Shown here one piece after another: positions 2,830 through 9,855 of a DNA stretch of 11,485 nt. The notes below the pieces were generated by a model, which was not told the origin of the DNA, did no database searches, and saw nothing but the letters and a program-made list of their open reading frames with translations. Origin of the DNA: a virus. Where the stretch lies: IMG/VR virus record IMGVR_UViG_3300044941_000346, one strand, 5' to 3'. A program made the translations under genes and the position numbers. Numbering within the stretch: position 1 is the stretch's first letter; every line of letters starts with the position of its first letter.

Positions 2830-3705
2830 TCACCACCTGACCGGGATGCGCTCCGGCACGCCATCGCCAAACGTCTCGTAGAGGTTCAAGCGATCCATAT
2901 GCACATAACCGATGTGGCAGCCGCAGGTCTCGTTGGTGCAGGGCGAGCGCACGAGCGTTGTGTCGAAGCCCTCGTTGTAGATGTTGCCGATCGGCGTTTT
3001 GATGAAGTGACAGCGCCGCGCAGTGCCATCGCCGTCAACCGTAAAAGCGCTGTAGCCCGCGCGGCATGAGGCGCCAAGCGAGGCGTGGCGCGTGGCGTTG
3101 TAGCGAAAGAGCGGATCGATCTGCTCAAACTTTAGCAGGTCAAGCTCTTGGTAATAGCCAGGGTCGCGCTTGTAGGCGTTGATCCACATGTAGACGCTTG
3201 GATCCAGCTCGGCGCGCAGCGCATTTAGCTCGTCGAGCGCGTCCTTGAACCCCACAGCGCCCACCGAGTAGCGCACGCCGCGCGTGTCCAGCTCGCGGCA
3301 CTTGGCCACAAACCCCGCGCGCGTGATCTGGGTCGGGTGGTACGTTGTCCACAGCGCCAGCACGTTGCGGTTGGCGCGCTCGGTCCAGCCAAGCTTGCAT
3401 GTCAGGTTGGTTTGGATTGCCGCACGCCACACATGGGGCATGTGGCTTAACTCAATCAGGGCCTCCTGATAATGTCGCCTTATCAATCCCTCGCCCCAGG
3501 GCGTAAACAATAATCCGATCTGCTTATCTGTGCGGAGGCGTATCCACTCGACAAAGCGCTCTAGCTTTAGTCGATCATCCTCTAGCTCCGCGCGTGTATT
3601 GCGGGTCTTGGCAAATGGGCAGTAGTCGCAAGCATAGTTGCAGCTCGACAGCGGACCGCGATACAAGATCACCCATCTGTCTGCAGCCTCGTGTGGCGTC
3701 TTCAT
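2830..3705 (-). CDS. Radical SAM enzyme, compact (291 aa), with a twitch/SPASM-like Cys-rich C-terminal region; resembles what I recall as the STM4011 family radical SAM protein
   Basis: The CxxxCxxC motif SSCNYACDYCPF lies at nt 3619-3642. C-terminal cysteines form CX12GX4C (CRAGYSAFTVDGDGTARRC) followed by CX4CXC (CTNETCGC), at nt 2917-3066. I chose the ATG at 3705-3703 (MKTPHEAADRWVILYRG...) because it forms an ATGA overlap with the upstream TGA stop (3704-3702). The 17-codon extension in the track ORF (to 3756) lies inside the upstream gene. Confidence 0.85.
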   Translation of the reverse strand: MKTPHEAADRWVILYRGPLSSCNYACDYCPFAKTRNTRAELEDDRLKLERFVEWIRLRTDKQIGLLFTPWGEGLIRRHYQEALIELSHMPHVWRAAIQTNLTCKLGWTERANRNVLALWTTYHPTQITRAGFVAKCRELDTRGVRYSVGAVGFKDALDELNALRAELDPSVYMWINAYKRDPGYYQELDLLKFEQIDPLFRYNATRHASLGASCRAGYSAFTVDGDGTARRCHFIKTPIGNIYNEGFDTTLVRSPCTNETCGCHIGYVHMDRLNLYETFGDGVPERIPVRW

Positions 3706-5099
3706 GTGATCGCAAAGCCCCGCATCATTGCCTCCACCTTGGGCGAGTTCATCCACGGGCCGATCACGTCCGAGGCGTCGATCCCACGCTGCGTCAGCGC
3801 GAGCGTCCCGGCCTCACGGCGCACCAGCCCCAGTGCCTCCAGCTCCGCCACCTGTGGCAGCGCCTCGTCGAGCGACACCCCGAACCTGCGCGCAAACAGG
3901 GCGAGGTCGAGCGCGTGTGCGCCGCCATCGGCCAAGAGCGACACCACCACGAAGCGGCGCTGCTGCTCGGCCTCGTCCAGTAGAAAGCCGTAGTGGACCG
4001 CACCAAAGAACTCAGCGGGGCGCTGCACCCAGTCCTCGATGATGTGTACCACGCTGCGTCGTCCCACCGCCCACTCCGTCGAGTAGTGCAGCCCGCGCGT
4101 GTAGGATCGCGCGCCTACGCCCAGGCCCACCATCCCATCCGTCGCTGGGTGGTACGCCGGCCCGCGCGTGCGCGGTGTATGATCGGCACGCACGAACATC
4201 CGCATCGATCGCTGATTGTAGCCATGGGATAGAAGATAATCGCGGCCCTGTTGATACAGATCATAGCGCCAGTCATCCCACGCCTTGTCCGAGTTTCCTA
4301 GTCCCGTCAGCGGCCTCACATACAGAGGATACAAGAAGATCTCCTCGGAGCCATACGCCACCGCCGCTTCAAGCGAGCGCTCCCAGCTCTGTGCTGTCTG
4401 GCCCTCGATCCCGTAGATGAGGTCGATGTTGCGCTCCTCAAAGCTGCCGCTCGCCAAGAGTTCAAGCGCGCGCTCCAGCACCTTGTGCCGCTGCGGCCTG
4501 CGCACCGCCTTGGTCTCCGACTCCAAGAAGCTTTGCACCCCCATCGACACCCGCGTCACGTTAAATCTCTTTAATATGTCGATCTTCGATGGTGTCAGCG
4601 TCTCCGGGCTGACCTCACACGAGAGCGGGATCTGCGGCGCGCTGCCGCCCAGCGGCGCCCCCATGATCCCGGCCGCGACCCGCTCAAACAGCGCCTCAAG
4701 CGACGCGTCATCCAGCTGCGTCGGCGTCCCGCCCCCCACCGCCATCCGCGCAAACCCCACCTCGCGCTCGCCCAGCGCGCGCCGCGTCTGCTCGGCCTGC
4801 CGCGTCAGCGCCCCCAAGAAACCCCTGTGCAGCGCATCGCCTGGCTTGGCCATCGCGAACAGGTTACAGAACCCGCAGCGCATCTCGCAGAACGGCACAT
4901 GAATATACAGGTAGAGCGCGCGCGTGTCCTCCTCGCGCCAGACCTCCTCCAGCTGCAGTGCTGGCTCGATCGGGCGATAGGCCGTCTTATGCGGATAAGC
5001 GTAGGCATAAGATTGAAACGGTGAACCGGTCAGCCGCATGGCGAGCGTCCCGGTCGGCATCGCCGTGTGCGGTGTCGTCGTGATCTGTGTCGTCGTCAT
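3702..5099 (-). CDS. HemN/HemW-like radical SAM enzyme (oxygen-independent coproporphyrinogen-III-oxidase-like family, 465 aa); resembles what I recall as the STM4012 family radical SAM protein
   Basis: The motif HVPFCEMRCGFCNLF (CxxxCxxC) lies at nt 4866-4889. The HemN-family hallmark GGGTP is present (MAVGGGTPTQL), as is a long C-terminal HemN_C-like region. I chose the ATG at 5099-5097 (MTTTQITTTPH...) because it forms an ATGA overlap with the upstream TGA (5098-5096). The track ORF extends 43 more codons to 5228, inside the upstream gene. Confidence 0.85.
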   Translation of the reverse strand: MTTTQITTTPHTAMPTGTLAMRLTGSPFQSYAYAYPHKTAYRPIEPALQLEEVWREEDTRALYLYIHVPFCEMRCGFCNLFAMAKPGDALHRGFLGALTRQAEQTRRALGEREVGFARMAVGGGTPTQLDDASLEALFERVAAGIMGAPLGGSAPQIPLSCEVSPETLTPSKIDILKRFNVTRVSMGVQSFLESETKAVRRPQRHKVLERALELLASGSFEERNIDLIYGIEGQTAQSWERSLEAAVAYGSEEIFLYPLYVRPLTGLGNSDKAWDDWRYDLYQQGRDYLLSHGYNQRSMRMFVRADHTPRTRGPAYHPATDGMVGLGVGARSYTRGLHYSTEWAVGRRSVVHIIEDWVQRPAEFFGAVHYGFLLDEAEQQRRFVVVSLLADGGAHALDLALFARRFGVSLDEALPQVAELEALGLVRREAGTLALTQRGIDASDVIGPWMNSPKVEAMMRGFAIT

Positions 5100-9001: not shown

Positions 9002-9855
9002 CTCTCGTCATCCACCCACACCGCAAGCTCTGGTCGCTGCGCATACAGATGCTCAAGCGCCGCGCGCACGGAGCGCTCACGCACCTCCAGCCCCGTCAGC
9101 CTGACCTCGCGCAGCGTCGGCAGCTGCTTGGGCGCCGCGCTCAACCACTCCAGGCGCACCCGGTTCCCACTTATATTTAAAGTCTCAATGCTCTCCATGC
9201 GATCCGTGAGCATCGCGTGAATCGATAGATCATTGTCGCTGATGTTAAGGTGTTTGATATGACTCATTGCGCCAGCTTTATTTATATGGACAGCATAGAC
9301 TGTGCTCAGCCCACAGCGTCGCAGGCTTATCCGAGCCAGCTTTGTCGCATCTGCGGGGAGCATCGCCCAGACACCTCGACCACCAAGTGGATTGTGATCA
9401 AGTGTCAAGGATTCGAGAACAGACCAGCTCAGATGACGCCCCAAGATCGCTCCTGCTTCCTCGCCTAAATCACACTCCGACAACATCACATGTGTGAGCG
9501 GCCCCATATCGGGGTTGCTTAATACTACCAAGAGTCCGTGATCGCCGAGCGGGCCGCGGTGGTGGAGGTGGCGGGCTAGCCGCCACAGCCTGCACCGCTC
9601 GCCGCGCAGCGTGGCCCGCATCCAAGCCGCCGGGTTGACGCGCATGGCGTCAGGCCAGGCTTTGAGGTGCTCCTCGGCGTAGGGGATGAGCATCTCCCAC
9701 AGGTAGTCATCATGCGCTGCGGGTGCCAGCACCGCGCAGATCTCGGCCCAGACAAGCGGGCAGGGCGGGCGGTGCAGCAGGCTGCGCAGCTCGGAGAGGC
9801 GCCACTCGGGCGAATCACGATGGGTTTTGGGTGAGGGAGACGGCATCAAGCTCAC
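8989..9855 (-). CDS. Leucine-rich-repeat protein, paralogue P4 (288 aa), with the same N-terminal module
   Basis: The N-terminal module is WRLSELRSLLHRPPCPLVWAEICAVL...LIPYAEEHLKAWPDAMRVNPAAWM. LRR units include LESLTLDHNPLGGRG, IKHLNISDNDLS, IETLNISGNRV and LREVRLTGLEV. The tail is VWVDDERWEP. The start is GTG 9855 (a GTGA overlap with the upstream stop 9854-9852) or ATG 9846. The gene contains a ~41% GC patch at 9171-9300. Confidence 0.8.
   Translation of the reverse strand: MSLMPSPSPKTHRDSPEWRLSELRSLLHRPPCPLVWAEICAVLAPAAHDDYLWEMLIPYAEEHLKAWPDAMRVNPAAWMRATLRGERCRLWRLARHLHHRGPLGDHGLLVVLSNPDMGPLTHVMLSECDLGEEAGAILGRHLSWSVLESLTLDHNPLGGRGVWAMLPADATKLARISLRRCGLSTVYAVHINKAGAMSHIKHLNISDNDLSIHAMLTDRMESIETLNISGNRVRLEWLSAAPKQLPTLREVRLTGLEVRERSVRAALEHLYAQRPELAVWVDDERWEP

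Follow-up and report, generated by a model that had tools for sequence, protein, structure and literature searches.

We analysed a stretch of 11,485 nucleotides (nt), hereafter the window, from the IMG/VR virus record IMGVR_UViG_3300044941_000346, in which leucine-rich repeat (LRR) genes and enzyme genes follow one another through short start/stop overlaps. We consider it likely that these genes form a compact bacterial operon on the minus strand, a lineage-specific version of the STM4011–STM4015 cassette with ordinary tight junctions, whose probable single mRNA would be translated with termination-reinitiation at the overlaps. The window is the reverse complement of part of a 19.5-kb metagenome contig (L001) of the Joint Genome Institute (JGI), and all genes of the junction chain lie on its minus strand, with the junctions read from the reverse complement and extracted by script. 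The LRR genes are numbered P1 to P5 and the enzyme genes are called by family (Table 1).

A preliminary description of this DNA had listed seven junction strings, and all seven are present on the minus strand: ATGA at 7736-7733 (P5/STM4014), 5099-5096 (STM4013/STM4012) and 3705-3702 (STM4012/STM4011), GTGA at 9855-9852 (P3/P4), TTGA at 8992-8989 (P4/P5, with GTG 9001-8999 also in frame), an 11-nt overlap at 5923-5913 (STM4014/STM4013; ATGAGCGATGA) and a 20-nt overlap at 10807-10788 (P1/P2; ATGTCGAAGTCGGTGAGTGA). At every one of them an NTG is in frame with the downstream open reading frame (ORF), and the upstream ORF ends with the TGA. The geometry of a 4-nt overlap (-4), in which an NTG overlaps the TGA of a co-directional upstream gene, is seen at 7736, 5099, 3705, 8992 and 9855, with the upstream ORF intact to its stop at four of these and not at P3/P4, where P3 is frameshifted and has no credible start. 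Because P3 (the upstream partner at 9852-9855) is frameshifted and P2 (the downstream partner at 10788-10807) is a truncated stub, these two junctions do not join two working genes and instead involve gene remnants. The intact genes are linked by five junctions (P4-TTGA-P5-ATGA-STM4014/HAD-(11 nt)-STM4013-ATGA-STM4012-ATGA-STM4011), with no intergenic DNA between the P4 and STM4011 genes. Other in-frame starts lie near the junctions, namely ATG 9846 (P4), GTG 7718 and GTG 7715 (STM4014), GTG 5929, GTG 5911 and ATG 5905 (STM4013), and GTG 10795 (P2). ATGA occurs 47 times on the minus strand of the window (4.1 per kb), three of these exactly at gene boundaries and in the correct frame, and NTGA tetramers (A, G or T before a TGA stop) number 160; the overlap chain exceeds chance, but unsurprisingly so.

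Table 1. Features of the junction chain, with positions in the window and the size, profile or composition that characterizes each.
Feature	Coordinates	Strand	Description
P1, STM4015-family LRR protein, 3' part	10788..11485	-	start outside window; full protein 309 aa on L001; ends ...DDDDDYWYVEVGE-stop
P2, 5' stub of a P5-like LRR gene	10640..10807	-	~55 codons; overlaps P1 stop by 20 nt from ATG 10807
Low-GC spacer, P2 stub to P3	10574..10700		~125 nt; GC 0.44 (0.38 at 10574-10639) vs 0.64 for the window
P3, disrupted LRR paralogue	9852..10573	-	traced by tblastn of P4, P5 and orthologues and by three-frame translation
P4, LRR protein	8989..9855	-	288 aa from GTG 9855 or 285 aa from ATG 9846; Pfam LRR hits
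P5, N-terminal FGELRSLL domain plus RNI-type LRRs	7733..8992	-	419 aa from TTG 8992
STM4014, ATP-grasp ligase with C-terminal HAD phosphatase fusion	5913..7736	-	607 aa from ATG 7736; NF038074 333 bits (cutoff 175), profile position 1 at residue 5
STM4013/SEN3800 hydrolase	5096..5923	-	275 aa from ATG 5923; stop of STM4014 at 5915-5913; NF038075 406.5 bits (cutoff 250)
STM4012, HemN-like radical SAM	3702..5099	-	465 aa from ATG 5099; NF006067 526 bits (cutoff 380)
STM4011, small radical SAM	2830..3705	-	291 aa from ATG 3705; NF038073 386 bits (cutoff 200), profile position 2 at residue 12

The preliminary description had also moved several starts from the longest possible ORF to the overlap, and these corrections are supported for all genes except P4. 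JGI places the gene starts on this contig at GTG 9855, TTG 8992, ATG 7736, ATG 5923, ATG 5099, ATG 3705 and ATG 2602, the NCBIfam profiles set in 4-26 residues after the overlap starts, and the residues directly downstream of those starts are kept in relatives. We rejected the longest-ORF starts at 3756, 5228 and 7745, whose 17, 43 and 3 additional residues find support in no profile or relative, and with them the long start at 2611, where the JGI call is ATG 2602. For P5, an NTG that overlaps the P4 stop and stands exactly 7 codons before FGELRS recurs in three lineages (TTGA in the window, GTGA in the metagenomic relatives L086 and L093/L094), and TTG 8992 is preceded at 5 nt spacing by GAGAGGUGGGAG, a strong Shine-Dalgarno-like (SD-like) sequence that is the best such match (free energy, dG, -10.3); owing to this conserved 7-codon lead and the best SD-like sequence, TTG 8992 is favoured over GTG 9001. 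The ATGA junction between P5 and STM4014 is kept in L086/L095 and L094 (~63-65% identical), the STM4014/STM4013 junction always overlaps (by 11 nt in the window, 4 nt in L094 and 19 nt in L095), and STM4011 has no ATG other than ATG 3705 ahead of its conserved core. Judged from the sequences, the overlap starts are supported for P5, STM4014, STM4013, STM4012 and STM4011, with GTG 9855 and ATG 9846 as candidate starts of P4.

Seeing the enzyme families of the window in canonical order, we place its junctions beside those of 80 genome loci that carry the cassette (L006-L085; Myxococcota, Cyanobacteria, Janthinobacterium/Massilia, Planctomycetota, Streptomyces/Actinomadura, Chloroflexota, Bacteroidota and others). 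The gene order 4015-4014-4013-4012-4011 on one strand is that of most of these loci and, apart from the P2-P5 insert, of the window, the usual arrangement being STM4015 (LRR) - STM4014 (ATP-grasp) - [HAD] - STM4013 - STM4012 - STM4011. Counting in-frame -4 starts available upstream of the conserved core in these phylogenetically related genomes, we found one at 95 of 234 junctions overall. They are available at 42/70 STM4013->4012 junctions, at 24/62 for STM4012->4011 (plus three at -1 and many at -7 or -10), at 19/52 for STM4014/HAD->4013 (with many at -8, -10 or -13) and at 10/50 for STM4015->4014, where most junctions have gaps of 5-30 nt. The downstream frame stands in -4-compatible phase at 42/60 (4013->4012) and 48/59 (4012->4011) junctions, with binomial p values against 1/3 of 7e-9 and 5e-14 that are inflated by relatedness; the phase bias spans phyla, and ATG is the commonest codon at -4. 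We interpret the overlaps as a family-wide trait of the cassette, neither chance nor special.

Under the operon reading, P4 to STM4011 would share one mRNA, with the operon possibly beginning further upstream, and translation of each downstream gene would be started for the most part by ribosomes that have only just reached the stop of the gene before it (termination-reinitiation at ATGA-type overlaps). The P1/P2 and P3/P4 junctions would be leftovers of gene decay, unable to pass on translation, given the 5' stub P2 and the frameshifted P3 without a start, and transcription may read through them. Promoter-like sites in the window number 3 against 1.9 expected from shuffling and terminator-like sites 7 against 6.7, with none at any junction, and an Rfam scan of the window returned no family at gathering score. 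SD-like sequences lie inside the upstream gene before TTG 8992 and ATG 5099. The claim of a single polycistronic mRNA for the whole chain is kept in part: it is plausible for P4 to STM4011, given the lack of intergenic DNA, of any promoter-like or terminator-like excess, and the tight junctions across phyla, but the P1/P2 and P3/P4 junctions involve remnants. Co-transcription and coupling, as read from gene arrangement, are plausible. In experiments in E. coli and Haloferax, most overlapping pairs tested were translationally coupled by termination-reinitiation (Huber et al. 2019, PMC6728339). The operon and coupling interpretation seems reasonable yet generic, the overlaps being of the well-known ATGA type.

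The observations that weigh against this reading concern how constant the overlaps are and where translation begins. Overlap lengths vary among relatives (-4, -7, -8, -10, -13, -19 and small gaps), and because they differ, the exact 4-nt geometry is not strictly required. Such drift, which also takes in gaps of +1 to +30, is what would be seen if the overlaps were neutral by-products of genome compaction and start/stop turnover, carried on a shared transcript with de novo initiation and without regulatory meaning. NTGA is moreover the easiest overlap to create (any TGA preceded by A, G or T will do, as at the 160 minus-strand sites counted above), and overlapping ones account for ~15% of co-directional pairs in most prokaryote groups (PMC6728339). 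The neutral explanation nevertheless sits poorly with the strong phase bias and the enrichment of ATG at -4 across phyla at two junctions, with the retention of ATGA/NTGA at P5->4014 and P4->P5 in lineages that are only ~50-65% identical, and with the experiments in E. coli and Haloferax, in which the majority of the -4 overlaps assayed proved to be coupled (PMC6728339), and we regard it as unlikely.

The remaining points on that side touch individual starts: SD-like support is weak or absent at ATG 3705, at ATG 5923 and at both P4 starts, and inside STM4014 a strong SD-like sequence, GAGGCGGUGGGUG (7732-7719, minus strand, dG -11.8), precedes GTG 7718/7715, with another gene caller having taken GTG 7718 as the start (601-aa product, L002) because of it. 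If some true starts lay slightly downstream (P4 at ATG 9846, STM4014 at GTG 7718, STM4013 at GTG 5911/ATG 5905, STM4012 at ATG 5060), the chain would be shorter. For P4 this is a real choice: the ATG used by its orthologues stands 27 nt (L086) and 14 nt (L093) past the upstream stop, ATG 9846 in the window lies 5 nt after the P3 stop with GTG 9855 as the alternative, and no SD-like sequence at usable spacing was found before either codon. For STM4014, the start at GTG 7718 has its SD-like sequence and its one gene caller, but it would delete the strand (R)W/F-V-V-V-G-N, which is kept in ~60 homologues; GAGGCGGUGGGUG could serve as a secondary internal initiation site. Strain variation as the source of the two calls was rejected, as L002-L005 are 100% or 99.98% identical pieces of one sequence and differ in gene-caller choice only. 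In many members of the STM4013 family just 1-3 residues precede the conserved DMN..VG.HD motif, and position 1 of the NCBIfam profile aligns with the Met of ATG 5905. This Met of DMN is, however, often replaced by A, V or L in relatives, and (S/I)DD ahead of it is common to the closest homologues, so that ATG 5923 is supported. For STM4012, Janthinobacterium relatives have an ATG at +35, but ATG 5099 has GGAG 4-5 nt upstream and nothing comparable precedes ATG 5060 or ATG 5039. With P4 alone truly ambiguous, a chain shortened by downstream starts appears improbable to us, and the operon reading with its overlap starts is the one we carry forward.

The LRR genes stand upstream of the enzyme genes. 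P1 matches the STM4015 profile NF038076 at 237 bits over the part in the window and, at full length, at 260.4 bits against a cutoff of 275 (E 1.6e-77, profile positions 6-290 of 290), and its tail carries the C-terminal motif of the family (...YVEVGE). Neither P4 nor P5 exceeds 52 bits against the same profile; both are non-members, LRR proteins of another kind, which have in common an N-terminal domain of ~80 aa (FGELRSLL...W..LC.LL...ALPY...W.D.LRVAP..W) followed by RNI-type repeats; P3-P5 lack the C-terminal Glu tail of STM4015. The stub P2 aligns with P5 over residues 1-27 and then diverges to a TAA stop, and its paralogous start, when its DNA is set in register with that of the P5 and P4 5' ends, is GTG 10795 and not ATG 10807, giving an 8-nt overlap with P1 (GTGAGTGA). 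The spacer that follows (10574..10700) has no Rfam hit and no consensus sigma-70 site, and may be either the scar of a rearrangement or a region with an internal promoter. Homology to P3 runs through three reading frames (~10492-10262, ~10262-10140 and ~10140-9852), which takes at least two frameshifts; there is no ATG start, the TTG at 10573 is without an SD-like sequence, JGI calls only the last 92 codons, and the C-terminal part orthologous to P3 is uninterrupted in L093. P3 is probably a pseudogene on this evidence, and P2 and P3 look like decayed LRR copies, with an assembly error as the alternative cause. No independent assembly of the P3 stretch was found: a 30-nt exact scan of metagenome contigs was empty, an exact look-up of P5 returned the same contig only, and a protein-pattern scan for P5 gave no relatives. 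P5 itself is tandemly duplicated in relatives, in two to at least three copies (L086 1012-3547; L092 1-2521; L095 1-1903), with an identical 67-nt spacer between the tandem copies that carries the last 15 nt of P4 and the GTGA start. Taken as sequence comparisons, these patterns indicate that the LRR array is evolutionarily unstable.

This instability bears on the further claim that the chain serves a fixed stoichiometry between LRR 'recognition' subunits and catalytic enzymes in one complex. Overlapping pairs reportedly often encode subunits of heteromeric complexes (PMC10666635), and the P4/P5 and P5/4014 overlaps are kept in the lineage of the window; yet the claim is not supported and we judge it very improbable, as the number of LRR genes beside the cassette ranges from 1 to 6 with P5 tandemly amplified in relatives, P2 and P3 are decayed in the window, only 10/50 STM4015->STM4014 junctions allow a -4 overlap and most have gaps, Myxococcus and related genomes encode the STM4015-4014 pair on one strand and 4013-4011 on the other, the C-terminal Glu that is invariant in STM4015 points, together with the LysX/RimK-like ligase, to a substrate or carrier role, and coupling alone does not yield 1:1 output, downstream genes of some operons having been found experimentally at several-fold the level of upstream ones (PMC6728339).

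Turning to the composition of the cassette, several variations accompany the common order. In Myxococcus, Corallococcus, Cystobacter and some Planctomycetota/Verrucomicrobiota (L006, L021, L024, L037-L039, L044, L054, L060, L067, L072, L075) the cassette is split, with STM4015-STM4014 on the opposite strand to (HAD)-4013-4012-4011; because the pair stays together in these split cassettes, it acts as a separable module. Cyanobacterial loci (L026, L028, L030, L031, L035, L043, L048, L051, L077) possess up to six STM4015 paralogues; STM4012 and STM4011 flank some of these, and the terminal Glu is retained in most. Not every cassette includes the HAD phosphatase: the window (5913-6600), L094/L095 and L022 have it fused to STM4014, ~13 loci have it as a separate gene before STM4013, and 56/71 loci lack it. 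Pfam places STM4013 in the sulfatase/metalloenzyme superfamily (alkaline-phosphatase (AP)/sulfatase).

The ends of STM4015 and the fold of STM4014 offer a tentative view of what such a cassette does. A C-terminal Glu, following an acidic linker and the motif RY[VI][AS]V[GSA], is found in 77/80 STM4015 homologues (L006-L085), the P1 tail (10788-10830) ends in DDDDDYWYVEVGE, and STM4015 lies directly upstream of STM4014 in 50/51 same-strand pairs measured. A profile of 31 STM4014 N-domains searched against the PDB has its best matches in LysX (1uc8/1uc9 and 3vpd, E ~2e-4), there are weak NCBIfam hits to rimK_fam and LysX_arch, and the AlphaFold2 model of STM4014 (predicted local distance difference test score, pLDDT, 95) finds ArgX-LysW 3vpb and LysX/ArgX 5k2m as its best Foldseek matches (E 1e-13 to 1e-11). 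DcsG, D-Ala-D-Ala ligases (Ddl), RimK and the ligase PsnB, which acts on a ribosomally made, post-translationally modified peptide (RiPP), are close behind in that search, with Ddl, DcsG and RimK within about two orders of magnitude, and a single-sequence PDB search with the STM4014 N-domain gave no match. The Glu at a protein's C-terminus is where LysX/ArgX and RimK act, and for this reason STM4014 is suspected of modifying the C-terminal Glu of STM4015. By this analogy, the STM4015 LRR protein may act less as a recognition module than as substrate or carrier for the ATP-grasp enzyme, and it is possible, though we put it forward only tentatively, that the cassette carries out protein-tethered biosynthesis or modification. 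The C-terminal Glu of STM4015 would then be acylated or extended by STM4014, and the tethered group would be tailored or released by the two radical SAM enzymes together with the AP-superfamily hydrolase and, in loci that have it, the HAD phosphatase. The tight junctions would then reflect an enzyme-substrate module, with P3-P5 as accessory partners.

Beyond the chain, the window and its contig hold features of less certain connection. A 37-codon ORF on the minus strand (2709-2822), which starts 7 nt after the STM4011 stop and is called by JGI, has no counterpart downstream of STM4011 in the 40 relatives inspected and no tblastn match, and the reading of the locus as a RiPP precursor-peptide system was rejected, this sole small ORF being unconserved and probably spurious. 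Further downstream (131-2602, minus strand; 227 nt from STM4011) lies a gene whose 823-aa bacterial product is homologous to the major vault protein of eukaryotes (MVP; Pfam MVP_shoulder 1.3e-27, Vault_3 4.5e-8). None of the 80 genome loci showed an MVP gene next to the cassette, and a phmmer search with the protein gave no PDB sequence hit. The PADLOC defence models returned only generic hits at the level of radical SAM (PDC-M51A 33.8 bits, pVip 15 bits) and include no model for the cassette. Concerning the organism, the closest genome in the species collection has no match above 68% for the hydrolase, Myxococcus is among the closest named relatives (~69% for the hydrolase), distant P5-like proteins come from metagenome-assembled genomes of Myxococcota and Polyangiales, and an Omp85 gene lies upstream on contig L001; the Omp85 neighbour and the nearest relatives hint at a diderm, perhaps a Myxococcota-like one.

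The overlaps matter little in themselves, giving sensible start codons and marking P4-STM4011 as a probable single expression unit of the sort many operons form. The locus is useful in offering an annotated case of the five-gene cassette, which is found in Myxococcota, Cyanobacteria, Burkholderiales, Planctomycetota, Actinomycetota, Chloroflexota, Bacteroidota and Salmonella. The cassette is a known, widespread and uncharacterised one, and the LRR insert (P2-P5) and the HAD fusion are unusual. Our search of the literature on STM4011-4015 returned passing mentions only, and one on the neighbourhood of radical SAM, ATP-grasp and LRR genes returned nothing. The invariant C-terminal Glu of STM4015 and the neighbouring LysX/RimK-like ligase make the function of the cassette directly testable.

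Compared with known systems, the window shares with the STM4011–STM4015 cassette all five families in canonical order, four of them above curated cutoffs, and tight junctions of the kind typical in the 80 genomes. It differs in the P2-P5 LRR array inserted between STM4015 and STM4014, an arrangement shared only with a small number of metagenomic relatives (L086, L092-L095), in the fusion of HAD to STM4014, and in P1, whose 260 bits fall just below the cutoff of 275. Its junctions resemble the coupled ATGA/TGATG overlaps described elsewhere (Huber et al. 2019, PMC6728339; PMC10666635) in being co-directional 4-nt start/stop overlaps that run through an operon, in some cases with an SD-like motif inside the upstream gene, but two of the junctions here use TTG or GTG and one overlap is 11 nt long. 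A further likeness is to the LysW/LysX-ArgX and RimK-S6 systems, in that STM4014 is closest to LysX/ArgX in profile and fold, with RimK near behind, and that STM4015 ends in an acidic linker and an invariant Glu (often -VGE) where LysW ends in -EDWGE. The candidate carrier here is, however, an LRR protein of ~300 aa ending in [VI][GSA]E, whereas LysW is a zinc ribbon of ~55 aa, and its partners are two radical SAM enzymes with AP-superfamily and HAD hydrolases and not LysZ/Y/J/K, such that the window is not a member of the LysW/LysX-type pathways and would be an analogue of one at most.

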